A DNA stretch of 64,000 nt from Desulfobacterales bacterium (GCA_034003325.1 JAVEYW010000002.1:315662-379661), one strand, 5' to 3'. Shown: positions 29,397-46,182, counted from the stretch's first letter. The notes: generated from the letters alone by a model not told the origin. Translations and numbers: made by a program.

Positions 29397-29548
29397 AAGA
29401 GCCATTTTAAACGCCGAATTGTTTGCCTTCAGATGGTTCAGCAAAAGCTTTGGATGCATAATGTATTTTAAATTTTCCATCAGGGGTGACCGGCTCTGGA
29501 TTGTTTCGTTACATGAAAATAGAGCCATAGGTGGGAAAGGGGGCAACG

Positions 29549-30361
29549 ATGGATTGTCCGAATGAACATGGGAAAATGGTCATTAAGGCCATGAAAAAAG
29601 AGGTGACTTTTCGCGACAAGCGAATTGAATATGATGCGGAGCACTATGTTTGCCCTGTTTGCGGCACTGAAGTGGATGATTTGGTGCTTGCGGCTGAAAA
29701 CCAAAAAAGAATATCCGATGCTTACCGGAAGGCCGTCAACCTGTTGACTGGCCAAGAGATTGTGATTGGAAGGAAAAAGCTTAAGTGGAGCCAAGCCCGC
29801 CTTGCAGAGGCAATGAGCGTTGGTATTGCCAGTGTGAAAAGGTGGGAAACCGGCCAGATACAGACCAAGCCCATGGATGATACCTTGCGTCGGGTTTTAT
29901 CCGGGAAGCCATCGGGAAATAACCCATACGCCGGCAACAGAAGCCTATCGCTTCAAAGAATAAAACGGGTTTTGCACCAGTTCAGCAAAACACTTGACCG
30001 GGATATGTTGAAAGATGATCCGGGGGACGTGCTTCTTTATGAGGCAAAATACATTTGGCTTGCTGACATAATTTCATTTCGGGAAACCGGCCGGGGAATG
30101 ACCGGGGCCACTTATGCCCGATTACCCCAAGGCCCTCAATTGAATAATTATAGGGATTTGGTTCCCATGATTAAAGCCGCTAATGAAGACGAAGCGGAGC
30201 CTCTTACTGATCACGAAATCAGAATTATTTCCCGGATTGCCGCCGCATACCCTACCAATAAGAGCATTTATGATGCATCTCATAACGAAGATGCTTACAA
30301 AACAAGAAGAGATGGCGAGCTTATGCTCTATACGGATGCCGAGAGTGTAAGGGCATTATGA
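29549..30361 (+). CDS. antitoxin-like protein: MqsA-type Zn-ribbon + HTH fused to Panacea/SocA (DUF4065) domain
   Basis: 'CPNEHGK...YVCPVCGTE' is a Zn ribbon and 'LTGQEIVIGRKKLKWSQARLAEAMSVGIASVKRWETG' is an HTH_XRE. 'LLYEAKYIWLADIISFRETGRGMTGATYARLPQGPQLNNY' has the DUF4065 pattern. Confidence 0.75.
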   Translation: MDCPNEHGKMVIKAMKKEVTFRDKRIEYDAEHYVCPVCGTEVDDLVLAAENQKRISDAYRKAVNLLTGQEIVIGRKKLKWSQARLAEAMSVGIASVKRWETGQIQTKPMDDTLRRVLSGKPSGNNPYAGNRSLSLQRIKRVLHQFSKTLDRDMLKDDPGDVLLYEAKYIWLADIISFRETGRGMTGATYARLPQGPQLNNYRDLVPMIKAANEDEAEPLTDHEIRIISRIAAAYPTNKSIYDASHNEDAYKTRRDGELMLYTDAESVRAL

Positions 30362-31830: not shown

Positions 31831-32043
31831 ATGGCCGAGATGGAAGATCGTTGGTTATCGATTAGCGAGATATGCAAATACCTCGGGGTTAGCAACGATA
31901 CCGTTTACAAGTGGATTGACAGGCATGGCATGCCTTCCCACCGCATGGGCCGTCTCTGGAAGTTCAAAAAAGACGAAGTTGACAAATGGGTGAAGGCCGG
32001 CGGCGCGGCTATGCACGGAAAAGGGAATCAAGGCCTGAAATGA
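31831..32043 (+). CDS. excisionase-family / MerR-like HTH DNA-binding protein
   Basis: The product is 70 aa with 'WLSISEICKYLGVSNDTVYKWIDRHGMPSHRMGRLWKFKKDEVDKWV', with the RBS gaggag. Its stop overlaps the first ATG of brxA (ATGA at 32040-32043). Confidence 0.8.
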   Translation: MAEMEDRWLSISEICKYLGVSNDTVYKWIDRHGMPSHRMGRLWKFKKDEVDKWVKAGGAAMHGKGNQGLK

Positions 32044-32654
32044 AGAATGAAAGATACATCATGTCACTTACAACGGGCGGTCTTTTTCTCCGCGAGTCGA
32101 TAAAGTTGGCGGCGCTCTTTCTTGAGCAAAGTGACTGGAATGCGATTAGAGAAAAGGTTCTTTCCGAAAACCTGTTGCAAACGAGAACGCTGAGCACCTC
32201 AAAACGATTCTGTCGGGAAATCATCTCCAGGCTAAAAACACTCGACCCCCGTGAGATTGACTTACTGGTTCACGGTAGCGGTCAGGAGCAAGGCTGTCTT
32301 TTGTGGATCGCGGTTTGCCGTCGTTACAAATTCATTGCCGAGTTTGCCGTAGAGATTATTCGGGAACGTTACATCAGTCTCAAGACCGATCTTCACTATG
32401 AAGACTTTGATTCCTTCTTTAACCGGAAATCAGAGTGGCATCCCGAGCTTGATATAATTAAGCCGGCGACTCGAAATAAGCTCCGTCAGGTGTTGTTCAA
32501 AATTCTGCGAGAAGCCGAACTTCTGACCAACGATTATACCATCAATGCCGCCATGTTGAGCCCCCGGCTCTTGGAAGCCATTTCGCACAATAGTCGTGAG
32601 GCTGTTCTGTTTTTTCCTGCTTTTGAGTCCGATTTAATAGGGAGGGCGCGATGA
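32040..32654 (+). CDS. brxA: BREX protein BrxA (DUF1819)
   Basis: 'SLTTGGLFLRESIKLAALFLEQSDWNAIREKVLSENLLQTRTLSTSKRFCREIISRL' is the DUF1819 pattern. It occupies the first position of a brxABC-pglX-pglZ-brxL array. An alternative start lies at 32061. Confidence 0.85.
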   Translation: MKNERYIMSLTTGGLFLRESIKLAALFLEQSDWNAIREKVLSENLLQTRTLSTSKRFCREIISRLKTLDPREIDLLVHGSGQEQGCLLWIAVCRRYKFIAEFAVEIIRERYISLKTDLHYEDFDSFFNRKSEWHPELDIIKPATRNKLRQVLFKILREAELLTNDYTINAAMLSPRLLEAISHNSREAVLFFPAFESDLIGRAR

Positions 32655-33262
32655 TTTCGGGTATCGAGAAGAAATCCATGCAAGAAAGATTTCAGCATCT
32701 GTTTGATGTGATCTCCGGAAAACGGTTTCTTCAGAAGCAAGGTCTCGGGAACGAAGTTCCTTTCTTCATTTGCCCTTTCAGACCGGAAGAGTGCGTCGAG
32801 ATGGAACGGCTGCAACGGCAGCTTGTCAACAGTCTTTCGCATGCGGGTGTCCGCGTGCTCGAAATTAACCTCTATGATCTTTCCATCGAGATTCTTAAAG
32901 GACGGGACCTCTGGGAACAAATCCTCGATATAGAAAACTCGGTGTCCAAGGAACAGCTCAGGGAGTTACTCCAAGGGGTGTTAGATCCCGAAGCCCATTT
33001 GGTCCCCGCCATCGCCGCCAAGCTTGCGAACAATGAATTTGACGTGCTGTTTCTGGCCGGCGTCGGTGCGGTTTTTCCCTATATCCGATCTCACAATGTG
33101 CTGAACAACCTGCAAAGCACGGCAAAAGAAAAACCGACCGTCATGTTCTTTCCGGGGGCCTATACCCACTCCCTGGAATCGGGCGCATCGCTCGATCTTT
33201 TTGGAAGATTGCATGACGATAAATACTACCGGGCGTTCAACATCTTTCACTGCGAAGCCTAA
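32651..33262 (+). CDS. brxB: BREX protein BrxB (DUF1788)
   Basis: Translation shows 'GNEVPFFICPFRPEE...', 'VLFLAGVGAVFPYIRSHNVLNNLQ' and 'VMFFPGAY'. There is an ATGA overlap with brxA. Confidence 0.85.
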   Translation: MISGIEKKSMQERFQHLFDVISGKRFLQKQGLGNEVPFFICPFRPEECVEMERLQRQLVNSLSHAGVRVLEINLYDLSIEILKGRDLWEQILDIENSVSKEQLRELLQGVLDPEAHLVPAIAAKLANNEFDVLFLAGVGAVFPYIRSHNVLNNLQSTAKEKPTVMFFPGAYTHSLESGASLDLFGRLHDDKYYRAFNIFHCEA

Positions 33263-33276
33263 ACGAAGGAAACACG

Positions 33277-36200
33277 ATGACGCTGAAAACTATTTTTAAT
33301 AAGCCTGTTGACCGACCGATTGAAGGGGTCATCAAAGCCGACGATGAAGAAAGCCTTCTCCTTGAAACCGAAGAGTATGTGCTGACCAATGAGGTGGAAA
33401 AGCGCTTGGAGTCATTCCTGGATGCTTACAACACCTACGAGGGGGCCAACGGGGTTTGGGTTTCCGGCTTCTTCGGGTCCGGGAAATCTCATCTGTTGAA
33501 GATGCTGGCACTGCTTCTGGAGAACCGGCGGATCGACGGCGTTTCCGCTCTCGATTTGTTTCTTCCCAAGTGCGGCGATAACGAGATTCTCCGAGGGGAT
33601 CTCAAGCGGGCCGTTGCGATTCCCTCAAAAAGTATCCTGTTCAACATCGACCAGAAGGCGGATGTTATCAGCAAAACCCAGATCGATGCGCTCCTTGCCG
33701 TATTCGTCAAGGTGTTCGACGAAATGTGTGGCTACTACGGCAAGCAGGGTCATATTGCTCAATTTGAGCGCGATCTCGACAGCCGGGGGCATTATGAGGC
33801 GTTCAAATCGGCTTATCAAACTCTTGCCGGGAAAAGCTGGGAAAAAGGGCGCGAACAGGCATTGCTGGAGTCACAGAATATCGCCAAGGCCTATGCCCGG
33901 GCCACCGGCGGCGAGGATACCTCGGCAATGGGGATTCTCGATAAATACAGAAGCCAGTATCGGGTCTCGATCGAGGACTTCGCCGATCAAATAAAGGCCT
34001 ATGTGGACCGGCAATCTCCCGAGTTCCGGCTGAACTTCTTTGTTGACGAGGTCGGACAGTACATCGCCGGAAACGTGAAGCTGATGACGAACCTTCAAAC
34101 CATCGCCGAAAGCCTTGCCACCAAGTGCCGGGGCCGAGCCTGGATCATGGTGACCGCTCAGGAGGACATGAATTCGGTTGTCGGTGAAATGAGTAACCAG
34201 CAGGGTAACGATTTTTCCAAGATTCAGGCCCGTTTTGCCAACCGGATGAAACTTACCAGCGCCGATGTGGCCGAAGTGATTCAAAGGCGCCTGTTATTGA
34301 AAAACGATGAGGGGGTTCGACTGCTGTCAGACGTTTATCATGCGGAGGTGAACAACTTCAAAACCCTCTTTGACTTTGCGGACGGCTCGCCGATCTACCG
34401 CAATTTCCAGGACCGGGACCATTTCATTCACAGCTATCCCTTTATCCCTTACCAGTTCGTGCTGTTCCAGTCCGCAATTCAGAACTTATCCCAACATAAT
34501 GCCTTTGAAGGAAAACACAGCTCGGTCGGTGAGCGCTCCATGCTGGGCGTATTCCAGCAGGTGGCCATTCAAATCGGAGATCATCAAATCGGACAGCTTG
34601 CAACCTTTGACCTGATGTTTGAAGGGATTCGAACGGTTCTGAAATCCAATATTCAGCGCTCCATCCTGCAATCCGAAAAGCAGCTCGACAACCCATTTGC
34701 CATTCGGCTGCTGAAAACGCTTTTTCTCGTCAAGTACGTCAAGGAATTTAAGCCGACAGTCCGCAACCTGTGCGTGCTGATGCTGGATCACTTCAAGCAG
34801 GATCTGCCCCAACTGCGCCGGCAGGTTGAAGAGGCGCTCAACCTGCTGGAACTTCAGACCTACATTCAACGCCATGGAGACCTCTACGCGTATCTCACCG
34901 ACGAGGAAAAGGATGTCGAGCAGGAGATCAAAAACACCGAAGTTGAATCCACCGAGATCGCCGCAGAGCTTGAAAAGATCATTTTTGATTATGTCATCAA
35001 GAACCGAAAGATTCGCTACGACGAGAAAGGGCAGGACTACCCCTATTCCAGGAAACTCGATGACCGCCTTCACGGTCGGGAATATGAGCTTTCGATCAAT
35101 GCGATAACCCCTTTTCACGAATTTGCGGGAAATGAGCAAACCTTGCGAAGTCACTCGTTCAACCGGGAAGAGCTGCTGGTCGTGATGCCGCCGAATGATC
35201 GACTGGTGCGCGATATTCTGATGTACAAGCGAACTGAAAAATACATCAAGCAGAACATTTCCATCACTCAGCAGGAAGGGGTCAAACGTATCCTGACCGA
35301 TAAGGGCTTCCAGAACGCGGATCGCTATGCGGAGTTGAAGCAGCTTATCCAGATGCTTCTTGGCAAAGCCAAACTTTTTGTGGCGGGCAATGAGGTCGAG
35401 ATCGGTGGAGAAGATCCCCAGGCCCGAATCACCAAGGGGTTTCAACAACTTATTATACGCGCTTATCCGAACCTGCGCATGCTGCGCGGAATTGCCTACA
35501 CCGAAAACGATGTCGTTAAATGCCTCAAACAGTCCAAGGAGGGGCTGTTCGGTAATGATGTGACATCACTGGCCGAATCAGAGCAGGAATTGCTTGCTTT
35601 CATCCAGAGCAACATCCGCGGCGGCGTGCGCACGACCCTGAAGAGCCTGCTGGAAAAGTTTGAGCGCAAGCCTTATGGCTGGCCTTATGCGGCCGTTCTC
35701 TGCACACTTGCTCATCTTTGCGCCCGGGGCAAGGTAGAGGTTCGGACTGACGGAACAATCCTTGAGGAAGACGACCTCGAACGCGCGCTTCGCAACACGC
35801 ACAGCCATGGCAATGTTGTGCTGGAACCACAGGTCGATTTTACCCCATCCCAGGTTCGCAGCCTCAAGGAGTTCTATGAGGATTTTTTCGATAGCCCGCC
35901 CCGTGCCACTGAAGCAAAGGCACTTGCCAAGGAGACCGGTGCTGCCTTGAAGGACATGATACAGGACCTAAACCCCCTGGCGGCGCAGTCGGCGCAGTAT
36001 CCTTTCCTGAATGTGCTGACCCCGGTTCTTGAGAAGCTGAAAGGACTCGCCGGCAAACCCTACGCTTGGTATCTGACCGGGCTGCTGTGTGAGGATAATG
36101 CCCTGATTGCGCTGAAGGAAAAGGTCATTGACCCGGTTCGAAAGTTCATGAACGGGCCGCAAAAGGGTATTTTCGACGCTGCCCGTAAATTTGTGCAGGA

Positions 36201-36867
36201 GCAGGAGCCGAATTTTGACTACATCAGAGAAAGGGGAAGTGGGAAGCTCGAAGTGAAAGAGGGCTCACCCTACGGTTTTACGCCTGATACCTTGCTTCAG
36301 GCTTTGGCTGATCCCGAATGTTTTAAGGGTAATGGCATGCAGCAGGTGAAAACCCTGGTGGACACGCTGCAAGAAAAGGTGACGGCACGGATCGCGGCAG
36401 AGATCAAAAAAGCTTTAGATACCGTTGCGGCACTCAAGGACCGTCTTTGTGATATGGCCGAATTTGCCGCGCTAAAGCCAAGCCAGCAGGAGCAAATCAC
36501 TCGGTCATTCATCGAGTTTTCTCAGTCGATTGAACAACAAAAACTGATCGCCGTGATTCGCGATAACCTGCGGCGCTTTGAAGAATCCGACTACCAACGG
36601 CTGCTTTCCCAAATGGCTTCCTGGGCAAAACCCACACCAAAGCAAACCCCTTCGGGGGGAAGCGAACCGGCGCAAGCTTCAGGAAAGGAAACGGCAGTAA
36701 CACCGATTGAACCGGAAGCCCCTGTTGAATACGTGTCAGGCCGAAATCTCAGGTTTTCCTTTGATAAAGCCTGGCTTGCTGATGATTCGGATGTGGACCG
36801 GTACCTCAAGGCCATGCGGGAGGCGCTTTTGGCTGAGATCCGGAAAGGGAAGCGGATACAGATTTAG
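33277..36867 (+). CDS. brxC: BREX system P-loop ATPase BrxC
   Basis: The product is 1196 aa with the Walker A 'GFFGSGKSHLLKML', 'FFVDEVGQYI', and the size and position typical of BrxC. Confidence 0.9.
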   Translation: MTLKTIFNKPVDRPIEGVIKADDEESLLLETEEYVLTNEVEKRLESFLDAYNTYEGANGVWVSGFFGSGKSHLLKMLALLLENRRIDGVSALDLFLPKCGDNEILRGDLKRAVAIPSKSILFNIDQKADVISKTQIDALLAVFVKVFDEMCGYYGKQGHIAQFERDLDSRGHYEAFKSAYQTLAGKSWEKGREQALLESQNIAKAYARATGGEDTSAMGILDKYRSQYRVSIEDFADQIKAYVDRQSPEFRLNFFVDEVGQYIAGNVKLMTNLQTIAESLATKCRGRAWIMVTAQEDMNSVVGEMSNQQGNDFSKIQARFANRMKLTSADVAEVIQRRLLLKNDEGVRLLSDVYHAEVNNFKTLFDFADGSPIYRNFQDRDHFIHSYPFIPYQFVLFQSAIQNLSQHNAFEGKHSSVGERSMLGVFQQVAIQIGDHQIGQLATFDLMFEGIRTVLKSNIQRSILQSEKQLDNPFAIRLLKTLFLVKYVKEFKPTVRNLCVLMLDHFKQDLPQLRRQVEEALNLLELQTYIQRHGDLYAYLTDEEKDVEQEIKNTEVESTEIAAELEKIIFDYVIKNRKIRYDEKGQDYPYSRKLDDRLHGREYELSINAITPFHEFAGNEQTLRSHSFNREELLVVMPPNDRLVRDILMYKRTEKYIKQNISITQQEGVKRILTDKGFQNADRYAELKQLIQMLLGKAKLFVAGNEVEIGGEDPQARITKGFQQLIIRAYPNLRMLRGIAYTENDVVKCLKQSKEGLFGNDVTSLAESEQELLAFIQSNIRGGVRTTLKSLLEKFERKPYGWPYAAVLCTLAHLCARGKVEVRTDGTILEEDDLERALRNTHSHGNVVLEPQVDFTPSQVRSLKEFYEDFFDSPPRATEAKALAKETGAALKDMIQDLNPLAAQSAQYPFLNVLTPVLEKLKGLAGKPYAWYLTGLLCEDNALIALKEKVIDPVRKFMNGPQKGIFDAARKFVQEQEPNFDYIRERGSGKLEVKEGSPYGFTPDTLLQALADPECFKGNGMQQVKTLVDTLQEKVTARIAAEIKKALDTVAALKDRLCDMAEFAALKPSQQEQITRSFIEFSQSIEQQKLIAVIRDNLRRFEESDYQRLLSQMASWAKPTPKQTPSGGSEPAQASGKETAVTPIEPEAPVEYVSGRNLRFSFDKAWLADDSDVDRYLKAMREALLAEIRKGKRIQI

Positions 36868-36921
36868 TGCCTTATGGATTATTTTCTTGTTATTTTAAAA
36901 AGAAAATAATCCATAAGGCAC
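36867..36921. repeat. perfect 22-bp inverted repeat (hairpin) immediately after brxC stop
   Basis: GTGCCTTATGGATTATTTTCTT (36867-36888) and AAGAAAATAATCCATAAGGCAC (36900-36921) are separated by an 11-nt loop. No downstream T-run follows. Confidence 0.85.
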
Positions 36922-36951
36922 TTATCCCGGCGCCGGGGTTAGGAGTTACAC

Positions 36952-38625
36952 ATGAACGTAAGTGAACAGGAAGTCCTTGATCTGATTCGGCAAGGTGAAA
37001 ACCTGACCATTGAATTTAAAAGTGACCGGAAAAAGCTGTCTGACAGCGACCTGGTCGCTGCCATCGTCGCTCTGACAAACACGGAATGCGGCGTCCTTAT
37101 TTTGGGCGTGGAAGACGATGGGGCCATCACAGGGCTTCATGCATCCCACCGGGATACGCTTGGGATGGCCGCCCTAATTGCGAACCGCACCAATCCACCG
37201 CTTTCCGTCGGGATAGAACAAATTAAAGTTCAAGATATACCAGTCGTTCTCCTCCGTGTTCCCAAATCCAGACAACTGGTTTCTACCTCTGATGGATTGA
37301 TTCAGCGAAGGCGATTAATGGCAAACGGCAACCCCGAAGCCGTACCTTTTTACCCGCATGAATTTATTCAAAGACAATCTTCAATGGGATTGACCGACCC
37401 TTCCGCGATGCCCATCCAGGAATTACCCATCGATGAATTAAACCCCCTGGAAAGGCACCGAATACGCGAAGCTATTCGAAAATTCGGGGGCGATCAATCC
37501 TTGTTGCCGCTTGCGGACAATGAGTTGGATGGGGCTCTCGGGTTGACCAGGATTTCCGGTGGATCACTGTGCCCGACTTTGGCCGGGTTGCTGCTGCTTG
37601 GGCGCGAAGAACATCTGCGGCAATACTTGCCGGCATATGAAGTTGCCTTCCAAGTCCTTGAGGGTACGGATGTCAGGGTCAATGAGTTTTTCAGAAAACC
37701 GCTGTTACAAACTTTCGAGGCGGTAGAGCAGCTTTTTAGGGTACGTGTTACTGAGCAAGAGATTCAAATGGGGCTTTTCAGGGTTGCGGTTCCCAATTTT
37801 GATCGCCGCGCCTTCCGGGAAGCGTTTGTCAACGCGCTAGTTCATCGGGATTATTCCAGATTAGGCGCTGTCCATGTCCGTTTGGATGACGATGGCATCA
37901 CCCTTTCCAATCCCGGAGGCTTTGTTGAAGGTGTCACCTTGCAAAACCTGCTGGTTGTTCCTCCACGTGCACGAAATCCACTACTTGCGGATATTGTAAA
38001 GCGCATCGGCTTGGCGGAAAGGACAGGCCGCGGGATCGACCGTATTTATGAAGGAATGCTTCGATACGGACGCCCGGCGCCGGACTATGGCATGTCCGAT
38101 GCCACCTCTGTAGTGCTGTCCCTGTCCGATGTAGACCCTGACTTCAAATTTTTGGAAATGATCCTGAACCAGGAAAGCCGGACAGGATCCGCCCTGCCTA
38201 TTGACAGCTTGATTCTGCTTTCCCGTCTACGGAATGAACGCCGCCTTTCCATAGCAGAACTCACGCCGGAAATCCAAAAATCGGATCAAGCCACCAGGCG
38301 GGTCCTTGAAAAACTGGTGGAAGCGGGGCTGGTTGAGGCCCACGGTGTCGGTCGTGGCCGCACATACACGCTGAGCGTCAAGGTTTACCAGCAATCCGGG
38401 CAGAAAGCGGCATATGTCCGTCAGGCTGGGTTTGATCCCATTCAGCAGGAACAGATGGTTTTGAACTACATTGACGCGCATGGTTCCATTAAACGAGCGG
38501 ATGTGATTGAGCTTTGTCGATTAACCAAGGATCAGGCCGCGAAGCTTTTAAAACGGCTTATTTTTAAAGGGAATATAGAAAAGCATGGCGAGCGCAGGTG
38601 GACTCACTATGTGCGCAAATCATAA
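36952..38625 (+). CDS. AlbA_2 (Schlafen-like 'divergent AAA') + HATPase_c_4 + C-terminal winged-HTH protein (COG2865-type)
   Basis: The N-terminus 'EQEVLDLIRQGENLTIEFKSD...AIVALTNTECGVLILGVEDDGAITGL' is AlbA_2. The middle, 'FREAFVNALVHRDYS...VRLDDDGITLSNPGGF...RNPLLADIVKRIGLAERTGRGIDRI', is HATPase_c_4. The C-terminus has two HTH-like repeats. Confidence 0.8.
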   Translation: MNVSEQEVLDLIRQGENLTIEFKSDRKKLSDSDLVAAIVALTNTECGVLILGVEDDGAITGLHASHRDTLGMAALIANRTNPPLSVGIEQIKVQDIPVVLLRVPKSRQLVSTSDGLIQRRRLMANGNPEAVPFYPHEFIQRQSSMGLTDPSAMPIQELPIDELNPLERHRIREAIRKFGGDQSLLPLADNELDGALGLTRISGGSLCPTLAGLLLLGREEHLRQYLPAYEVAFQVLEGTDVRVNEFFRKPLLQTFEAVEQLFRVRVTEQEIQMGLFRVAVPNFDRRAFREAFVNALVHRDYSRLGAVHVRLDDDGITLSNPGGFVEGVTLQNLLVVPPRARNPLLADIVKRIGLAERTGRGIDRIYEGMLRYGRPAPDYGMSDATSVVLSLSDVDPDFKFLEMILNQESRTGSALPIDSLILLSRLRNERRLSIAELTPEIQKSDQATRRVLEKLVEAGLVEAHGVGRGRTYTLSVKVYQQSGQKAAYVRQAGFDPIQQEQMVLNYIDAHGSIKRADVIELCRLTKDQAAKLLKRLIFKGNIEKHGERRWTHYVRKS

Positions 38626-38636
38626 GTTATGCGTCA

Positions 38637-38698
38637 GGCTCATAGCTTATGAGCCGGCTCATAGGAGGCTCATAGGAGGCTCATAGGAGGCTCATATC
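38637..38698 (+). repeat. GGCTCATA motif array: one 8-bp-stem palindrome plus 3.5 tandem copies of an 11-bp unit (GGCTCATAGGA)
   Basis: The sequence reads GGCTCATAgctTATGAGCC, then GGCTCATAGGA x3 (38656-38688), then GGCTCATAtc. It lies directly after the stop of the AlbA_2 gene, ~190 bp upstream of pglX. Confidence 0.9.
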
Positions 38699-38890
38699 TC
38701 GAATGCTTCCATGAAAAAAAATTCGAGAGACAAATATAAATACGACGCTGAATAGAGTGACCATCTTCCTGCGCCGGGAAAATGGTCAAGTTGGTAAGCA
38801 AAGCGGCAAATATCAATGTAACAAATAGAAACTACAAAGTAAAATGCTTAATAATAGGTTGGGGAAATCACCGGCGACAAAGGAAGATGG

Positions 38891-41800
38891 ATGGAAACTT
38901 CGAAGCTGAAAAAATTTGCACAGTATGCGCGCCGAAACTTAATAGAGCAGGTTTCCGCCAAGCTGAAGCTGGTATTGGCCGAGGACAGCGCGGCCCGGCG
39001 CGAGAATGCCCCAGCCGTTAAAAAGCTTGAAGAGCAGATCGGGGAAACTGGCGAAAGCCAAGTGATCGAAAAGGTCGCCTATACCTGGTTTAATCGTTTC
39101 TGCGCGCTGCGTTTCATGGATGTGAACCGTTATACCCGGATTGGTGTGGTGTCGCCTGCAGAAGGGCAGTTTCAGCCTGAGATTTTGGCCGAGGCCAAGA
39201 TGGGCCATATCGACGAGAGCATGGTACCCGAGAAAACCCGGCAGAAGGTTTTTGCATTGCTGGATGGCAAGGTTCCCAGTAATGATCCGCAGACTGAGGC
39301 TTACCGACTCCTCGTGGTTGCCGTTTGTAACGACTACCACGATGCCATGCCCTATCTGTTTGAGCGGATTGCCGATTACACCGAACTGCTGATGCCCGAT
39401 GATCTGCTTTCGGGAAACTCTATCCTGGCCTACACCCGCGAGGCGATGACGCCTAATGCCTGCCAGGACGTGGAGGTCATCGGATGGCTCTACCAGTTTT
39501 ATATCAGCGAGAAGAAGGACGAGGTCTTTGACGGCCTGAAGAAAAACAAGAAAATCACCCCCGAAAATATTCCGGCAGCGACACAGCTCTTCACCCCGCA
39601 CTGGATCGTGCGGTATCTGGTTGAAAATTCCCTCGGTCGTCTCTGGATGCTGAACCGTCCCGATTCGAGATTGATTGAACGGATGGACTACTACATCAAG
39701 CCCGAAGAGGCGGAAACCGATTTCCTGCGCATCAGCAAGCCGGAAGAACTGAAGATCTGCGATCCGGCCTGCGGCTCCGGGCACATGCTGACTTATGCCT
39801 TCGACCTGCTCCATGCCATTTATGAGGAAGAAGGCTATGAACCTGCGGAGATCCCGGAAAAGATCCTCACCCACAACCTCTACGGCATCGAGATCGATGA
39901 ACGCGCCGGGGAACTGGCTGCCTTTGCCCTGACCATGAAGGCCCGCGCCAAACATCGCCGCTTTTTCAGAAAGAAGGTGGTCCCCAATATCTGCGTGCTG
40001 GAAAATATCCGGTTCAATGAGGGCGAGCTAAAGAGTTACATGGATTTTGTCGGGCGGGATCTTTTTACCGCGCCTTTGCAAACCACCCTGCGGCAGTTTG
40101 AAGAGGCGGATAACTTCGGGTCTCTGATTCGCCCTAAGGTAAGCGATGTGGCGTGGATATTAAAAACGCTGAAAGAGAAGAATGTCTCTGGACAAATTTT
40201 TCTGAGCAAGACCCATCTGAAGGTATTGAAGGTCTTGCGGCAGGCCGACTATTTCAGCCCCCAGTATCATGTGGTGATTGCTAATCCGCCGTATATGGGG
40301 GGCAAGGGGATGAATGGGCGTCTGGGTGCTTGGCTTAAAGATAACTATCCAGATGTGAAGTCTGATTTGTTTTCGGCCTTTATGGTTCGAAATACTGAGC
40401 TTGCTTTGCCGAAAGGCCAATTGGGTTTCATGTCGCCATTTGTATGGATGTTTATTTCATCTTTCGAAAGGCTACGCAATTTCCTCATTAATCAGAAAAC
40501 GATCACTTCACTTGTCCAGCTCGAATACTCCGGCTTTGATGGAGCAACGGTGCCAATTTGCACTTTCACTGTGGAGAACACACATCATCCCGATTTTAAG
40601 GGAGGGTATGTACGCCTTTCCGATTTTCGTGGGTCAGAATACCAAGGCCCAAAAACGCTCGAAGCCATTAATAATCAAAATTGTGGCTGGTTTTACCGAT
40701 CTTCCGGCACCAACTTCAAGAAAATACCCGGCAGTCCTATCTCTTATTGGCTGAGCGAAAAGTTGTTGAATAGCTTCACTAAAGCAAAGGAATACCTTTC
40801 AGATTCTGGAACTATACGTGAAGGTATAACAACTGGAGACAATGACCGTTTCTTGAGACTGTGGTATGAGGTTGGTCAATCTCATACGCAACTTGAATAT
40901 GATCAAGGCAACAGTTCTTATAAATGGTTTCCGCATAGAAAAGGGGGGGGCTATAGAAAATGGGCTGGGAATATGGAGTATTTTCTTAATTGGAAGGATA
41001 ACGGTACAGACATTCATGTGTTTCATGCGTTGCCACTTGACTATAATGGCGCACCAGTTCGTGGCAAAGCATATTTTTTTAGAGAGGCATTGTCTTGGAG
41101 TCGTATTAGCTCAGGAAAATTTTCATTGCGTTACCATAAAGCGGGCTCAACATATGACTCAACTGCGCCATCAGTATTCACAAGTTCCGACCGAAAAAAT
41201 CAAACGCTCGCTTTTTTGAATGGGAAAATTGTTGCTCATCTCTTGGCTGCGATAAGTCCAACCCTTGACTTCAGAATTACTAATCTCGGCAGATTGCCGT
41301 TGCTCTCTATCAACTCGTCCAGTCTGTCAAAAATTAATGCAAACACCATAGCTTTGGTTCGTTCTGGGCAAGTGGATTGGGATTCCTACGAAACCTCTTG
41401 GGATTTTAATGACCTGCCGCTACTTCGACCCGATTATTGGCAACCAACTTTGAACACCACTTACCAGAAGCTCCGCGCCCACTGGCAGGAAATGGCACTT
41501 GAAATGCAACGTCTCGAAAAAGAGAACAACCGCATCTTTATTGAGGCCTATGGCCTGCAAGATGAGCTAACACCCGACGTCCCTCTAAGTGAAATCACCC
41601 TGACCTGCAATCCCCACTACCGCTACGGTAACAACAAGAGCGAAGACGAGCTGGAAACCTTGCTCCTGGCCGACACCATGAAGGAGTTTATCTCCTACGC
41701 CGTGGGCTGCATGTTCGGCCGCTATTCGCTGGATAAACTGGGGCTAATTCTTGCCAACCAGGGCGAAACCATTGAGGATTATCTGAAGCAAATCCCCGAA

Positions 41801-42406
41801 CCGATCTTCCCGGCGGATGCCAACAACGTCATCCCCATGCTCGACGGCGACTGGTTCACCGACGACATCGCCGAGCGCTTCCGCAAATTCCTGCGCGTCA
41901 CTTTTGGCGAGGAGCACTATGAGGAGAACCTCAAGTTCCTCGAAAAGGCCCTGGGTAAAGACATCCGCAAGTATTTTCTTAAAGATTTTTATAACGACCA
42001 TGTTCGCCGGTACAAAAAGCGGCCCATTTACTGGCTGTTTTCAAGCCCAAAGGGCAGTTTCAATGCTCTCATCTACATGCACCGCTATCGCCCGGATACG
42101 GTGAGCGTGGTGCTCAATGATTATCTGCGCGAGTTCCGCGCTAAACTGATCGCCCGAAAGGATCATCTTGAGGCGGTGAGTATCAGCGCCGGTGCCTCCT
42201 TGGGAGAAAAAACCAAGGCGCTAAAAGAGATCGAAACCTTAAAAAAGATGATAAACGAGCTGAGCGCCTATGAACGCGAGGTGCTCTATCCGCTTGCTAC
42301 CCAGCAAGTGGCAATTGAGCTTGACGACGGGGTGAAGGTGAATTACCAGAAATTCGGCGCGGCCTTAAAGAAGATTCCGGGTCTGGATGCGAAAGGTGAG
42401 GAGTGA
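38891..42406 (+). CDS. pglX: BREX-1 N6-adenine DNA methyltransferase PglX
   Basis: The product is 1171 aa with the SAM motif 'ICDPACGSGHML', the catalytic 'VIANPPYMG', and a conserved C-terminal region 'RPIYWLFSSPKGSFNALIYMHRY'. Confidence 0.92.
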   Translation: METSKLKKFAQYARRNLIEQVSAKLKLVLAEDSAARRENAPAVKKLEEQIGETGESQVIEKVAYTWFNRFCALRFMDVNRYTRIGVVSPAEGQFQPEILAEAKMGHIDESMVPEKTRQKVFALLDGKVPSNDPQTEAYRLLVVAVCNDYHDAMPYLFERIADYTELLMPDDLLSGNSILAYTREAMTPNACQDVEVIGWLYQFYISEKKDEVFDGLKKNKKITPENIPAATQLFTPHWIVRYLVENSLGRLWMLNRPDSRLIERMDYYIKPEEAETDFLRISKPEELKICDPACGSGHMLTYAFDLLHAIYEEEGYEPAEIPEKILTHNLYGIEIDERAGELAAFALTMKARAKHRRFFRKKVVPNICVLENIRFNEGELKSYMDFVGRDLFTAPLQTTLRQFEEADNFGSLIRPKVSDVAWILKTLKEKNVSGQIFLSKTHLKVLKVLRQADYFSPQYHVVIANPPYMGGKGMNGRLGAWLKDNYPDVKSDLFSAFMVRNTELALPKGQLGFMSPFVWMFISSFERLRNFLINQKTITSLVQLEYSGFDGATVPICTFTVENTHHPDFKGGYVRLSDFRGSEYQGPKTLEAINNQNCGWFYRSSGTNFKKIPGSPISYWLSEKLLNSFTKAKEYLSDSGTIREGITTGDNDRFLRLWYEVGQSHTQLEYDQGNSSYKWFPHRKGGGYRKWAGNMEYFLNWKDNGTDIHVFHALPLDYNGAPVRGKAYFFREALSWSRISSGKFSLRYHKAGSTYDSTAPSVFTSSDRKNQTLAFLNGKIVAHLLAAISPTLDFRITNLGRLPLLSINSSSLSKINANTIALVRSGQVDWDSYETSWDFNDLPLLRPDYWQPTLNTTYQKLRAHWQEMALEMQRLEKENNRIFIEAYGLQDELTPDVPLSEITLTCNPHYRYGNNKSEDELETLLLADTMKEFISYAVGCMFGRYSLDKLGLILANQGETIEDYLKQIPEPIFPADANNVIPMLDGDWFTDDIAERFRKFLRVTFGEEHYEENLKFLEKALGKDIRKYFLKDFYNDHVRRYKKRPIYWLFSSPKGSFNALIYMHRYRPDTVSVVLNDYLREFRAKLIARKDHLEAVSISAGASLGEKTKALKEIETLKKMINELSAYEREVLYPLATQQVAIELDDGVKVNYQKFGAALKKIPGLDAKGEE
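40943..40950 (+). repeat. G8 homopolymer tract inside pglX (codons GGG GGG GGC)
   Basis: Read directly: aaaaGGGGGGGGctat, in frame with pglX ('HRKGGGYRKW'). Confidence 0.95.
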
Positions 42407-42413
42407 ACCGGAT

Positions 42414-43574
42414 ATGAGTGACAAGAACACCACGCAACCTGCATTGGACTTCGGACAACTGGTCGGTGTCATCCGTCAAGTCCATGACAAGTTGGCAGCC
42501 CAGGTAAGCCGGGCTGTCAATACCAGCCTCACCCTTCGCAACTGGATGATTGGGTTCCACGTTGAGGAGTATGAGCGCCGGGGCGTTGATCGTACCGAAT
42601 ACGGCGACAAGTTGATGGACATGCTCGCCGATAGTCTGACCCAGCTTGGCGTATCGCGTTGTGATCGGCGGGAAATTTACCGCTATCGCCAGTTGTATCT
42701 GACTTACCCGCAGATTGTGGAGATAGTGACTCCACAATTGCAGCCTCTGATAGGGCAGGTATGTTTGGCTGGTGCCGATTCTTCATCCGATGCCGCTGCC
42801 CCAACGATTGTGGAGACGTCTCCACAGTTCAGAATCGATGGTAAGACCCTGATTTCGCGCCTATCGTTTTCGCATATCGTGGAATTGCTCAACCTGGAAG
42901 ATGCCACCAAGCGCACGTTCTATGAGGTGGAGTGCATCCAGGGCAACTGGTCGGTTCGTGAATTGAGACGACAAATCCACAGCCTCTACTATGAACGTTG
43001 CGGCCTTTCGATAGATAAAAAGAAGCTTTCGGAACTTGCCCGGCAAGGCGCGGAGCAGGTGTCACCCGCCTTGCCGGTGCGCGACCCGTATATATTCGAG
43101 TTCCTGGGCCTGACGCCTCGAGAGGTGATGAGCGAATCACATCTCGAAGACCAGCTTATCAGTAAGATTGAAGAATTCCTTTTGGAGCTGGGCCACGGAT
43201 TCTGCTTTGAAGCCCGGCAAAAACGAATCCTGATCGGGGACGAGCATTATTTTATTGATCTGGTTTTCTATCACCGCATCCTGAAGTGCCATGTGCTGGT
43301 GGAGTTGAAACTGGCCGAGTTCAGCCATGAAAACATTGGCCAGCTCAATACCTACGTAAGCTGGTACAGAAAAAACATGATGCTTGAGGACGATAACCCG
43401 CCCATTGGCATCCTGCTTTGCACCCACAAGAAGCACTCTCTGGTCGAGTTCGCGCTGGCAGGTATGGATAACCGGCTATTTGTATCCAAGTACCAGATGG
43501 AGCTGCCCAAGCGGGAGGAAATCGAGCGGTTTCTTGCTGAAAAGCTCCATGAAGCAGGGGGCGTGGATGAGTGA
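42414..43574 (+). CDS. DUF1016 / YhcG-family PD-(D/E)XK nuclease
   Basis: The N-terminal helical domain reads 'LTLRNWMIGFHVEEYE...YGDKLMDMLADSL'. The C-terminus, 'RDPYIFEFLGL...HLEDQLISKIEEFLLELGHGFCFEARQKRILIGDEHYFIDLVFYHRILKCHVLVELKLAEF...GQLNTYVSWY', contains the D...ExK motif. The start is 7 nt after the pglX stop. Confidence 0.85.
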   Translation: MSDKNTTQPALDFGQLVGVIRQVHDKLAAQVSRAVNTSLTLRNWMIGFHVEEYERRGVDRTEYGDKLMDMLADSLTQLGVSRCDRREIYRYRQLYLTYPQIVEIVTPQLQPLIGQVCLAGADSSSDAAAPTIVETSPQFRIDGKTLISRLSFSHIVELLNLEDATKRTFYEVECIQGNWSVRELRRQIHSLYYERCGLSIDKKKLSELARQGAEQVSPALPVRDPYIFEFLGLTPREVMSESHLEDQLISKIEEFLLELGHGFCFEARQKRILIGDEHYFIDLVFYHRILKCHVLVELKLAEFSHENIGQLNTYVSWYRKNMMLEDDNPPIGILLCTHKKHSLVEFALAGMDNRLFVSKYQMELPKREEIERFLAEKLHEAGGVDE

Positions 43575-43677: not shown

Positions 43678-46182
43678 ATGAATGATCGCATTGTCCAGGC
43701 ACTGACCAAGCTATTTGAGCGTTACCGCATCGTCTTCTGGTATGACGCCAAAAAGGAACTGCGTGCTGATTTCGAGGCGCTGGCGTTGGACGGGATTGAG
43801 AAGGTGGAGCTCACCAACAATGAGTTCGGGGTGAAACACCGGATTCTGCGGGAGCAACCGGAGCAGAAGTTTCTCCTCTACCGCGAAGGCCCACAGCCCG
43901 ACGACTTGGACAACTGGCTGCTGGATGTTCAGTTGGCCCATGGTGAATTCCGGACCGATCAGGCCGCGATCTGGCTCTCCGAGTTGGAGCTGGGACTTGA
44001 GTTTACCGATGTAGTGCAGGCTCATGCGGAGTTCTATCAGGCGGCTAAGCGAAAGGATGCACTTAAGCAGATCCTTAAACCCGATGATACCCCCGGCATG
44101 ATCCGCCTGAAGATGCTGGCGGTGTGCGCGGGATGTAAAACGGACCCGCGCATGGATGCCGTGGTGGAAAACCTGCTCGCGGAACTGGCCGATGAGCGGG
44201 ACGATAAGATGAAACTGATCGGCCGTTGCAATCTGGAGGGTTTTCTCTGGGAGCAGATGACCCGCTGCTACGGTTACAAGTCCGATGAGCCGGGCATACG
44301 CGATTTTGTTATCGAACTCTTTAAATCCTGCTATGCCATGGGGACCGATGGCGAGATCCGCCTGACCGGGGATGCCCTCGTGTTCCTCAAACACTGGAAA
44401 GACAGCCGTTCGTTTGAAGCGAGTTTTGAAACGCTCTCCGCTGAGTGTGCCGATGTGATCGGCATCGAACAGGATCTGGCCAAGCGGGATTACCGTGAAT
44501 TGATCGAGCTGGATTACTTCCCCCTGATTGATCAGAAAATTATCAGCGAGCTGGTTAAGGCCGTGGCATCCCGGACCGTATCAAGCGGCGATGTAGCGCT
44601 TTGGGTTCGTCCGCGCCGGCAGGGCCACTGGTTCGGAGAGTATCGCCACCTCTACGAAGCCGTTGATTTTGCCGCACAGTTCATGCAGACCATGGATGAG
44701 GCGGTATTAACCATGGTCAGTCTGGCGGATGGCGTTCAGCGTTACAGCCGTTTCTGGTTCCCATTGGATCAACTCTACCGAAAGTTCACTTACCATGTCC
44801 GCATGTCGGGGCAGGCCTCTCTAATGGGGGCATTATCCGAGCGAATTGAGAACCTCTATTCAAATAATTATCTGCTGAAGGTCAATGACCACTGGCAGTC
44901 TTTCGTCGACGAAACGGGCAAATGGGAGGCCCCTCCCGTCCCGCTGCAAAAGGACTTTTTCAGTCGCTGGGTACAGCCTTTTCTGAAGAAGGACAACAAG
45001 GTCTGTGTCATCATTTCGGACGCCTTACGCTATGAGATCGGCGACGAGTTATTGAGCCTCATTCGCCGGGAGGATCGATTCGAGGCGCATCTGGAACCCG
45101 CCTTGACCCTGTTACCGAGCTATACCCAGCTGGGCATAGCGGCGCTATTGCCCCATAGGGAATTGGCTCTGGCCGACAACGAAACTGGAGTTGTTCTCGC
45201 GGACGGCCAAAGCTCTCAAGGCACGGCCAATCGCATCAAGATCCTGGCGCAGGCCATTTCCCAACGGGCCACCGCGGTGAAGGCTGATGAATTAATGGGG
45301 TTAAATAAAGAGGATTGCAGAGGGTTAATTCGGGATCACGATGTGGTCTACGTATATCATAACCACATTGATGCAATCGGCGGCAAACGCGAAACGGAAG
45401 AACGCGTATTCGAGGCCGTGGAAGAGACCCTGCAGGATCTGATTCGATTGATTAAAAAACTCACCGGAGCCAACGCCAACAACCTGCTCATAACCTCGGA
45501 CCATGGTTTCATCTATCAGAACCGGGCCATCGAGGAGAGCGATTTTTCCGGTTGCGATGCCGTTGGGGACCTGATTCTGTTCCGTGACCGGCGTTTTGTG
45601 TTGGGCAAGGGGTTGAAGGAGGTTTCGGGCCTTCGCAAGTTTCAATCCGCCCAGCTTGGACTGGTCGGCGATGTGGAAGTGCAGATCCCGAAATCAATTA
45701 ACCGGCTGCGACTGAAGGGTTCGGGAAGCCGATTCGTCCACGGGGGCGCATCGCTTCAGGAGGTGGTGGTTCCGGTCCTTAAGATCAACAAAAAGCGGCA
45801 GAGCGATATTTCGTCAGTTGAAGTTGATATTTTACGAGGATCAAGCTCTGTGATCACCTCCGGTCAGCTCGCTGTCGCGCTCTACCAGGCGCAACCGGTA
45901 ACCGACAAGGTGCAGCCGAGAATCCTCCGGGCGGGTATCTTCACCCAGGCGGGCAATCTGATTTCCGATAGCCACGAGCTGACGTTTGACCTGGCATCCA
46001 ACAACCCGAGGGAAAGGGAGCAACAGGTGCGTTTTCTCCTGACCCGCAAGGCGGATGAGGCCAATGGCCAGGAGGTGATCCTGAAACTGGAGGAAAAACA
46101 TGTCGGGACCTCTCATTACAAAGAGTATAAGTCGCTCCGGTATATGATGCGGCGCTCATTTACCAGCGATTTTGACTTTTAA
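43678..46182 (+). CDS. pglZ: BREX-1 alkaline-phosphatase-superfamily protein PglZ
   Basis: The product is 834 aa with 'RIVFWYDAKKELR' at the N-terminus and a PglZ core 'VCVIISDALRYEIGDEL...TSDHGFIYQ...FVHGGASLQEVVVPV'. Confidence 0.9.
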   Translation: MNDRIVQALTKLFERYRIVFWYDAKKELRADFEALALDGIEKVELTNNEFGVKHRILREQPEQKFLLYREGPQPDDLDNWLLDVQLAHGEFRTDQAAIWLSELELGLEFTDVVQAHAEFYQAAKRKDALKQILKPDDTPGMIRLKMLAVCAGCKTDPRMDAVVENLLAELADERDDKMKLIGRCNLEGFLWEQMTRCYGYKSDEPGIRDFVIELFKSCYAMGTDGEIRLTGDALVFLKHWKDSRSFEASFETLSAECADVIGIEQDLAKRDYRELIELDYFPLIDQKIISELVKAVASRTVSSGDVALWVRPRRQGHWFGEYRHLYEAVDFAAQFMQTMDEAVLTMVSLADGVQRYSRFWFPLDQLYRKFTYHVRMSGQASLMGALSERIENLYSNNYLLKVNDHWQSFVDETGKWEAPPVPLQKDFFSRWVQPFLKKDNKVCVIISDALRYEIGDELLSLIRREDRFEAHLEPALTLLPSYTQLGIAALLPHRELALADNETGVVLADGQSSQGTANRIKILAQAISQRATAVKADELMGLNKEDCRGLIRDHDVVYVYHNHIDAIGGKRETEERVFEAVEETLQDLIRLIKKLTGANANNLLITSDHGFIYQNRAIEESDFSGCDAVGDLILFRDRRFVLGKGLKEVSGLRKFQSAQLGLVGDVEVQIPKSINRLRLKGSGSRFVHGGASLQEVVVPVLKINKKRQSDISSVEVDILRGSSSVITSGQLAVALYQAQPVTDKVQPRILRAGIFTQAGNLISDSHELTFDLASNNPREREQQVRFLLTRKADEANGQEVILKLEEKHVGTSHYKEYKSLRYMMRRSFTSDFDF

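Follow-up and report, generated by a model that had tools for sequence, protein, structure and literature searches.

The window analyzed here, a stretch of 64,000 nucleotides (nt) from a Desulfobacterales bacterium (GCA_034003325.1, JAVEYW010000002.1:315662-379661, with positions counted from its first letter), contains a type 1 BREX locus in which a gene for a protein of 557 amino acids (aa), combining a Schlafen RNase domain, a GHKL ATPase domain and two winged helix-turn-helix domains (wHTH1 and wHTH2), lies between brxC and pglX. We propose that this is probably an accessory, horizontally exchanged gene that carries its own cis-acting DNA array, matched to wHTH2, and that the window holds the class D version of this module. 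Genes of this class, and their association with BREX, have been published before, and the window gene is a further example; the module of array and wHTH2 appears to be new, being undescribed for the class as far as the searchable literature shows. An earlier inspection of this DNA (hereafter the sequence-only reading) had described a Schlafen-like open reading frame (ORF) inserted as a discrete cassette between brxC and pglX, with an inverted repeat and a motif array as its left and right boundaries; the ORF is present as described, and its neighbors are supported by Pfam.

The array starts directly behind the TAA stop codon of the gene; the sequence-only reading was right about its existence but had placed its start 12 nt after the stop. 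The motif GGCTCATA occurs six times between 38637 and 38696, against 1.3 occurrences expected across the window, and none of 100 shuffled sequences reached seven; Tandem Repeats Finder reports an 11-bp unit, GGCTCATAGGA, in 3.7 copies with 100% matches. The gene and the elements at its 3' end are as follows.

36952-38625, + strand: Schlafen RNase/GHKL ATPase/wHTH1/wHTH2 gene, 557 aa, TAA stop at 38623-38625
38626-38699: class-D array of seven units (u1 to u7)
38626-38635: u1, GTTATGCGTC, degenerate, forward
38636-38645: u2, AGGCTCATAG, reverse
38646-38655: u3, CTTATGAGCC, forward; holds TTATGAGCC in the opposite orientation at 38647-38655
38656-38688: u4 to u6, three copies of GGCTCATAGGA, reverse
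38689-38699: u7, GGCTCATATCT, reverse
38759-38787, + strand: stem-loop GACCATCTTCCTGCGCCGGGAAAATGGTC, conserved with the closest BREX relative (locus L003) by alignment; inverted-repeat hits I4, I12 and I21

In relatives of class D the array consists of five units (forward, reverse, forward, reverse, reverse). By tandem duplication the window has gained a further two 11-bp copies of the final unit; L003 has one extra copy, its array containing three 11-bp units. The stem-loop at 38759-38787 appears, from this alignment, to belong to the DNA that travels with the 3' end of the gene. Inspection of the array by eye revealed only weak -10-like TATAT strings, and no promoter is claimed within it. 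The 11-bp junctions of the units at 38656-38690 spell TAGGAG three times, the methylation motif of the Bacillus cereus BREX system; the likeness is probably a coincidence. Phage-borne decoy arrays were dropped as a candidate after a scan of viral_contigs for TTATGAGCCNGCTCATAA only, which returned a single unrelated palindrome.

Comparative analysis was based on a PglX scan with one genome per species (80 loci), a metagenome scan with the protein (80 more loci) and three homologue look-ups (6 more); individual loci are denoted by L numbers. In the 99 loci with an orthologue, units of 10-11 bp in both orientations start 0-3 nt after the stop codon, and arrays of 3-6 units were found in any genomic context, in 78 of the 79 unique orthologue loci. 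Within 60 nt of the stop codon on its 3' side, copies were counted as non-overlapping matches to the best 8-mer, with at most one mismatch and on both strands. At least three copies were present in 78 of the 79 unique loci and at least four in 65, versus 24 and none, respectively, among 708 random 60-nt control windows from the same loci. By contrast, no more than one or two copies were counted in the 60 nt before the start codon, in all 78 loci examined. Exact copies of the unit proper to each locus reach 28.7 per kb in the arrays, but outside them (875 kb in total) only 0.034 per kb. The right-hand array, found behind the stop codon in nearly every unique orthologue locus, thus belongs to the gene.

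The protein has the architecture given by the sequence-only reading (AlbA_2, HATPase_c_4 and two winged helices), as borne out by Pfam and, for the Schlafen and winged-helix domains, by an AlphaFold2 (AF2) model and Foldseek. Its domains and motifs are listed below.

aa 16-115: SLFN_AlbA_2 (PF04326), Pfam 1.7e-15, 58.1 bits vs a cut-off of 25.3
36997-37020, + strand: codons of the Schlafen catalytic motif E16-x4-E21-x-K23 (ENLTIEFK), from the translation
37819-37833, + strand: codons of the GHKL N-box E290-x3-N294 (REAFVN), Mg-ATP binding, from the alignment
aa 306-383: HATPase_c_4 (GHKL, PF13749), Pfam 2e-18, 66.6 bits vs a cut-off of 26
38164-38391, + strand: wHTH1 (aa ~405-480; Pfam region aa ~418-476, matching MarR_2, HTH_27 and HTH_24), present in all orthologues independently of array class
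38434-38622, + strand: wHTH2 (aa ~495-557; Pfam region aa ~498-553, matching DIP2311-like_C and Penicillinase_R), candidate class-D specificity module, from AF2 secondary structure
38527-38565, + strand: recognition helix (helix 3) of wHTH2, aa 526-538, KDQAAKLLKRLIF, from the AF2 model
38575-38616, + strand: wing of wHTH2, aa 542-555 (strands aa 542-545 and 552-555), from the AF2 model

In an alignment of 43 homologues, residues G15, E16, L18, E21, F22, K23, S24 and D25 of the Schlafen domain are invariant, as are E290, N294 and the glycine motifs P321-G322 and T358-G359-R360-G361 of the GHKL domain. The catalytic motif of prokaryotic Schlafens has been defined as Ex4(E/D)xK (PMC13056530), and the protein contains it as E16-NLTI-E21-F-K23. 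More than 7,700 database clusters match the protein at E<=1e-10, and the best 120 of these are all ~70% identical to it and ~557 aa long. The same protein sequence has been recorded for a Desulfobacterales metagenome-assembled genome; it is named "YcaQ family DNA glycosylase" at NCBI and ATP-dependent DNA helicase RecG-type at JGI, and both names can be traced to its winged helices or to the HATPase_c_4 model. The AF2 model is only moderate overall, with a predicted local distance difference test (pLDDT) of 64.5 and a predicted template modeling score of 0.35, and the inter-domain geometry and the GHKL fold were therefore left uninterpreted; by domain, pLDDT is 76-90 for the Schlafen domain, 71-83 for wHTH1 and 81-91 for wHTH2. 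In a Foldseek search against the PDB, DIP2311 (3lmm) was matched over the full length (2e-22), and 3lmm was also the sole match of a sequence search (phmmer, 6e-19). Further Foldseek matches comprise tandem winged-helix proteins (AlkX/YcaQ on DNA, SelB on SECIS RNA, MarR, ScpB) as well as SLFN13 and SLFN12, the last two of which the N-terminal domain resembles. The pAgo model of PADLOC matches aa 281-391.

The units fall into four classes, each with its own residues in helix 3 and the wing of wHTH2.

Class A: unit TTATGCGCC; helix 3 QAYK, wing RKGA; 32 cases
Class B: unit ATACGWGCGC; helix 3 FQA[TS]R, wing GKGT; 21 cases
Class C: unit TCTAYRCACRYG; helix 3 PQAY[HR], wing RH(Y)A; 15 cases
Class D: unit TTATGAGCC (the window, with helix KDQAAKLL); helix 3 QAA[KR], wing RRGA; 7 cases

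The class of the array agrees with the helix and wing of wHTH2 in all 75 classifiable cases, giving a fully diagonal table, and the helices form a series with the bases of the unit: QAYK goes with GCGCC, QAAK with GAGCC and FQATR with ACGWGCG. The agreement is almost confined to the last domain. Identity within and between classes is 0.69 vs 0.49 for wHTH2; for wHTH1 (0.74 vs 0.73) and for aa 1-500 it is 0.74-0.75 vs 0.73-0.74. On a tree of aa 1-500 the class changes 33 times (permuted labels give a mean of 41 and a minimum of 35), as opposed to five times on a tree of wHTH2, and some pairs of proteins fall into different classes (A and B) despite 99.4% identity over aa 1-500. All four classes occur in both BREX contexts described below. 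Moreover, in three loci orphan wHTH2 fragments of another class, each followed by its own cognate array, are present downstream of the current array, in the order class B then C (L153), class C then B then A (L097) and class C then A then C (L152); in many other loci, arrays of two or three classes are stacked. Because of these swaps, orphan fragments and stacked arrays, the wHTH2 tail and the array are regarded as one module that has been replaced repeatedly, and the order of the remnants indicates that new modules displace old ones, which stay downstream.

From this covariation we consider it likely that wHTH2 binds the 3' array as DNA. The array is interpreted as a double-stranded DNA site because it lacks strand bias, contains direct repeats that are unable to pair, and covaries with residues in the recognition helix and wing: predicted folding is as strong for the + as for the - strand (39 vs 33 arrays, p=0.34), and the direct 11-bp repeats of the window, L003, L171 and L173 cannot form hairpins. 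The unit, a GC core with an AT flank, has the composition that would be expected of helix-plus-wing contacts. Several wHTH2 protomers would be placed side by side on the array, at about one unit per helical turn. Such docking may govern transcription that crosses the junction towards the next gene, or it may hold the assembled RNase in an inactive state beside its own gene; these two consequences are not ranked with confidence. By analogy with characterized Schlafens and Schlafen-ATPases, a phage cue would then lead to ATP-driven oligomerization, tRNA cleavage and growth arrest, and the gene would act as a backup defense layer beside BREX.

Several points weigh against this proposal. The binding is read from sequence covariation, and the covariation could partly reflect physical linkage, as the array adjoins the wHTH2-coding DNA. 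Operators are not usually located 3' of a gene, and the array is not overlapped by any convincing promoter. SelB, one of the fold matches, binds an RNA hairpin just after a stop codon via tandem winged helices. The GHKL middle of the AF2 model is of low confidence. Finally, two HisKinase-type prokaryotic Schlafens (pSlfns) tested in E. coli gave no defense against a phage panel (PMC13056530).

The sequence-only reading had offered two roles for the gene, namely a regulator that senses infection for BREX and an independent embedded defense gene. Of the former, the rarity of the unit outside the arrays (0.034 per kb vs 28.7 per kb within them) makes an action at the main BREX promoter unlikely, and a local effect on the next gene is possible. 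The latter is favored, judging from orthologues of ~70% identity that carry arrays in type 3-like BREX loci, in a type III restriction-modification (R-M) locus and alone.

A stronger form of the local effect, to which we give a modest chance, is that the protein is mainly a local transcription controller of the kind represented by R-M C-proteins, gating the next gene (here pglX), with the classes avoiding cross-talk and the RNase and ATPase being secondary. The discrete orthogonal classes recall the C-box specificity groups, and the gene (X) is found repeatedly before a key enzyme gene, in the arrangements brxC-X-pglX, DUF6079-X-N6_N4 methyltransferase, hsdS-X-hsdR, methyltransferase-X-helicase and DUF1156-X-PLD; in the distant loci L178 and L180 a stretch of AT-rich, promoter-like DNA ahead of the next gene is enclosed by two repeats. 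However, a full array is also present where the downstream gene is convergent (L163), and the array is fixed to the stop codon and not to the next start codon, which is 40 to more than 300 nt away. In addition, more than 110 nt separate the array from the predicted pglX promoter downstream of it (38818-38855), BREX works without the gene in most relatives, and the invariance of both enzyme motifs points to a central role of catalysis.

There is a small chance that the array works as RNA, either as hairpins of the 3' untranslated region bound in a SelB-like manner, or like a type III antitoxin, by inhibiting the RNase in cis or acting as its decoy, or in transcript stabilization or processing. 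The array is always in the transcript, directly after the stop codon, and folds strongly (mean about -20 kcal/mol per 56 nt); the effector is an RNase, and the winged-helix domains of SelB on SECIS RNA are among the fold matches. On the other hand, the folding energy shows no strand asymmetry and thus no G-U wobble signature, the direct repeats of the four loci named above cannot pair, the class-determining residues lie in a classical DNA-recognition helix and wing, and no Rfam family matches. The antitoxin variant is further disfavored by the layout of known type III systems, in which repeats of ~36 nt lie upstream of the toxin gene; a ToxIN-like type III toxin-antitoxin system was therefore rejected for units of 10-11 nt in mixed orientation, downstream of the gene and free of strand bias.

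A broader proposal, which we put forward tentatively as improbable on present evidence, is that SLFN-GHKL-wHTH proteins, the largest class of bacterial Schlafens, work as one-protein systems, each using its last winged helix to read a private, iteron-like "address" directly behind its own stop codon, with the array serving as an anchor or "antitoxin" that keeps the oligomeric RNase off in cis. If the array DNA were lost, degraded or occluded, upon infection or after loss of the locus, the RNase would be released, and arms-race or incompatibility pressure would drive the swapping of wHTH2 together with its array.

It is highly improbable that the array serves to move the cassette by recombination, as a Xer/dif-like, attC-like or similar site, and matches wHTH2 only through linkage: it does lie at the 3' edge of a cassette found in several unrelated contexts, arrays are stacked in series, and GGCGCATAA resembles the XerC arm of dif, GGTGCGCATAA, but there is no partner site at the 5' edge, where the upstream 60 nt are without repeats, no recombinase gene is consistently adjacent, and the perfect match of helix and class over ~30 independent switches is hard to explain by linkage. 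An attC site consists of R''/R' cores (RYYYAAC...GTTRRRY) and a dif-like Xer site of 11-bp arms around a 6-8-bp center; five units with 10-11-bp phasing and centers of 0-3 nt fit neither these cores nor the 11-6-11 Xer layout, and an integron attC or Xer/dif-like site was rejected on these grounds.

The genomic context of the gene is a complete type 1 BREX locus, with all six core genes in order on the + strand in one operon.

31986-32654, + strand: brxA, strong Pfam match
32651-33262, + strand: brxB, strong Pfam match
33277-36867, + strand: brxC (1196 aa, TAG stop at 36865-36867), Pfam BREX_BrxC_4th (2.5e-55), BrxC_helical and BrxC_wHTH
38818-38855, + strand: promoter-like hexamers upstream of pglX (promoter scan, consensus matches only)
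38891-42406, + strand: pglX (1171 aa), Pfam Eco57I and N6_Mtase
43678-46182, + strand: pglZ, strong Pfam match
46197-48284, + strand: brxL, strong Pfam match

The GC content of the Schlafen gene (~0.50) is the same as that of the remainder of the BREX locus, so that no compositional sign of a recent insertion was found, and the 64-kb window contains neither a paralogue of the gene nor a second cluster of units.

Comparison of related loci supports the description of the gene as a discrete cassette. Both brxC and pglX could be placed in 70 of the 80 loci from the PglX scan. The junction between them is empty in 12 of the 70 (brxC-pglX spacing of 2-200 nt), an orthologue of 65-71% identity, always first after brxC, is present in 15, and the rest contain other cargo; ~40 are filled by a pair of genes that includes an ATPase. 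This pair also accompanies the orthologue in 7 of its 15 loci, and others of the 15 carry different extra cargo. In L003, which shares 96% DNA identity with the window over brxA-C, pglZ and brxL (brxC 86-96%), brxC is followed by ATG-AAT-GTA, encoding the first residues of the window protein (MNV), fused in frame to its last ~17 codons; then come the same class-D array, the conserved stem-loop and an AAA_15/21 ATPase pair before pglX. The resulting in-frame mini-ORF, MNVYEEDIEKHGERKGAHYVRGS followed by a stop (L003 7937-8185), is a scar of an internal deletion of the Schlafen gene, and the gene is therefore dispensable for keeping the BREX locus. Found in only 15 of the 70 related type 1 loci, and reduced to a deletion scar in the closest relative, the gene was accordingly rejected as a core BREX component; it is an accessory gene of BREX.

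The commonest cargo of the junction is the pair of an AAA_15/AAA_21 ATPase (354-465 aa) and a protein of 165-187 aa without a Pfam match (for example, L018 8396-9996 and L013 8058-9997, and ~40 other loci). This pair may be a split OLD-like nuclease, since the equivalent second gene of L161 is DUF4276. The junction may also hold a DEAD helicase-phosphoribosyltransferase fusion together with a DprA/SLOG protein (L015, L009), or a Bro-N protein (L017), among other cargo.

Among the metagenome and look-up loci, the context brxC-X-pglX was found in 18, and in ~29 the orthologue lies between DUF6079, a BrxC/PglY-like ATPase, and an N6_N4 methyltransferase, with an SNF2 helicase nearby; the latter context is type 3-like BREX. 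Further orthologues lie behind a type III R-M/AbiEi cluster, or alone beside an HTH_17 gene with a convergent neighbor. Orthologues outside type 1 BREX are ~70% identical to the window protein, and each has an array. The slot between a large ATPase and a methyltransferase is thus common to two BREX types, and the gene is not confined to BREX. No close orthologues were found on plasmids or in phages above 30% identity. In several DUF6079 loci (L136-L144, e.g., L143 4135-5643) a paralogous Schlafen-ATPase of 502 aa, with SLFN_AlbA_2, weak HATPase_c_4 and Fic-like_C domains, lies directly upstream of the orthologue, which results in two Schlafen genes in tandem, and in L165 a 164-aa SLFN-only gene lies just upstream. 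The tandem paralogue family (c6; SLFN, GHKL and Fic-like_C) was considered as an owner of arrays and rejected, the arrays near some of its copies being stacked remnants.

On the left side of the gene, the perfect 22-bp inverted repeat that the sequence-only reading had noticed at the brxC stop codon is real (36867-36888/36900-36921, starting at the last base of the TAG) and extends to 27-nt arms with 96% matches (36866-36892/36896-36922), of which none is expected by chance. It is part of a larger insertion.

36868-36942, + strand: 75-nt insertion specific to the window, with an AT-rich hairpin and a palindrome, absent from relatives
36926-36937: palindrome CCCGGCGCCGGG within the insertion

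The insertion is flanked by TTAG (36864-36867 and 36939-36942), has no second copy in the 64-kb window, and the segment 36861-36945 has a predicted folding energy of about -41.5 kcal/mol. In 14 relatives the junction reads CAGATTTAGGAnnCACAAATG without a hairpin, with 12-43 nt from the brxC stop to the start codon, and no relative has the hairpin. The view of this hairpin as a cassette boundary was thus abandoned; the insertion is lineage-specific and separate from the cassette. With TTAG on both sides and two palindromes, it is reminiscent of miniature mobile elements of the hairpin type, which integrate 3' of a tetranucleotide. An intrinsic terminator was rejected, as the scan gave no + strand site at 36860-36950 or 38626-38790, and the sequences that follow the hairpins (TTATCCC, and A-rich or mixed sequence) have no T-run. 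A search of Rfam 15 gave no match at the gathering score, the left hairpin yielding only sub-threshold look-alikes of miRNA precursors and the array nothing.

Distant homologues (22-30% identity, on plasmids and phage-like contigs) were inspected by eye, with no control set: 10 of the 14 have repeats in the first ~130 nt after the stop codon, and 4 have none. The repeats include AACTTGC with an 11-bp period, CTATCG/CGATAG, TAAGAAAG, and two copies of 18-21 nt bracketing AT-rich DNA; they are a lead and not a result. Such distant Schlafen-ATPase-wHTH genes with repeats of their own behind the stop codon, some of an 11-bp period and some on either side of promoter-like AT-rich DNA, are also found in type I R-M, DISARM-like and other defense operons (L169, L170-L173, L177-L180).

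Other features of the window were noted in and around the BREX locus. A gene between pglX and pglZ (42387-43574, + strand) overlaps the end of pglX by 20 nt and encodes DUF1016_N and a YhcG PDDEXK nuclease (PADLOC candidate PDC-S02, 4.6e-125); its orthologues (64-83% identity) occupy the same slot in L011, L013, L028, L044 and L060, and many other loci have different cargo there. Just after brxL, a gene at 48348-50006 (+ strand) encodes a 552-aa fusion of a PTP-SAK dual-specificity phosphatase and an ADP-ribosylglycohydrolase, for which PADLOC gave no hit. Its aligned parts are 96-98% identical in L003, and a relative of 43% identity lies upstream of brxA in Pseudomonas (L056, L069); it may be another BREX-linked accessory gene. 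Within pglX, the segment 40400-41600 has a GC content down to 0.41-0.46 and no similarity to L003, with flanks that are 88% identical; it looks like an exchanged target-recognition region, which would imply a BREX methylation motif different from that of L003. The product of brxL (46197-48284) has a C-terminal MIT_C/PLD-like domain (1.5e-43), and an MqsA-type antitoxin-like HTH protein of 276 aa (TIGR03830, 1.5e-22) is encoded at 29531-30361, ~1.6 kb upstream of brxA.

The sequence-only reading regarded bacterial COG2865 proteins as uncharacterized, which is out of date (PMC12839542; PMC13056530; bioRxiv 10.64898/2026.05.29.728809; bioRxiv 10.1101/2020.06.02.129163). Prokaryotic Schlafens cleave tRNA and defend against phage; among 5,930 of them the HisKinase-HTH architecture accounts for 19.2%, an Ig-like fusion was shown to cleave tRNA and provide defense, and a DUF262 fusion to provide defense (Perez Taboada et al., Nat Microbiol 2026, PMC13056530). 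The HisKinase-HTH pSlfns correspond to the SLFN+GHKL proteins named "Schlatpase" (bioRxiv 10.64898/2026.05.29.728809) with a C-terminal HTH, and share with the window protein SLFN_AlbA_2, Ex4ExK, GHKL, HTH and a defense neighborhood; however, the pSlfn members that gave defense have other sensor domains (Ig-like, DUF262), and neither line of work reports a cognate DNA array, specificity classes or displacement of a C-terminal module. Schlafen-minimal kinase-wHTH genes closely linked to BREX and BREX-related loci have been described in at least 1017 taxa and interpreted as backup suicidal effectors (PMC12839542, NAR 2026). The window gene is one more example of this class in a BREX operon; that study mentions no operator or palindrome for the Schlafen gene, and our analysis adds the array, the deletion scar and the finding that the slot between the large ATPase and the methyltransferase is fixed in two types of BREX.

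Among individual relatives, RzAgo (a SLFN-pAgo protein, bioRxiv 10.64898/2026.05.29.728809) has the same SLFN and GHKL domains, with E314 and N318 coordinating Mg-ATP at the spacing of E290 and N294 in the window protein, but its sensor is an Argonaute core with guide RNA, where the window protein has two winged helices together with a fixed DNA array. The Photorhabdus protein TrlG, from the temperature-restriction locus, likewise combines AlbA_2 and HATPase_c_4 and causes growth arrest at 37 °C when induced (bioRxiv 10.1101/2020.06.02.129163), but it is distantly related and lies in a different operon; the TrlF-linked homologue in L174 has no array. DIP2311 of Corynebacterium diphtheriae (3lmm), the only full-length relative with a solved structure (~600 Foldseek columns), is ~20% identical and is a structural-genomics entry with no known function or DNA site. 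Two general analogies can be drawn. In Rhs/CdiA polymorphic toxin tips, a variable C-terminal module is likewise paired with a cognate partner and orphan copies lie downstream, although the partner is an immunity protein and not a DNA array. R-M C-proteins and their C-boxes also form discrete orthogonal protein-DNA classes, whereas the site in the window is 3' of the gene and not upstream.

The junction between brxC and the methyltransferase gene emerges from this comparison as a cargo slot shared by two BREX types. The covariation of helix and wing with a 10-11-bp array provides a concrete handle on how HisKinase-HTH Schlafens are addressed, together with a natural series of helix-to-base specificities in at least four orthogonal classes. 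With a defined candidate DNA ligand, the question of what triggers these proteins, which represent ~19% of prokaryotic Schlafens, becomes directly testable. If the last winged helix does read a private DNA address, the rule may hold family-wide, given the repeats present in homologues of 22-30% identity.

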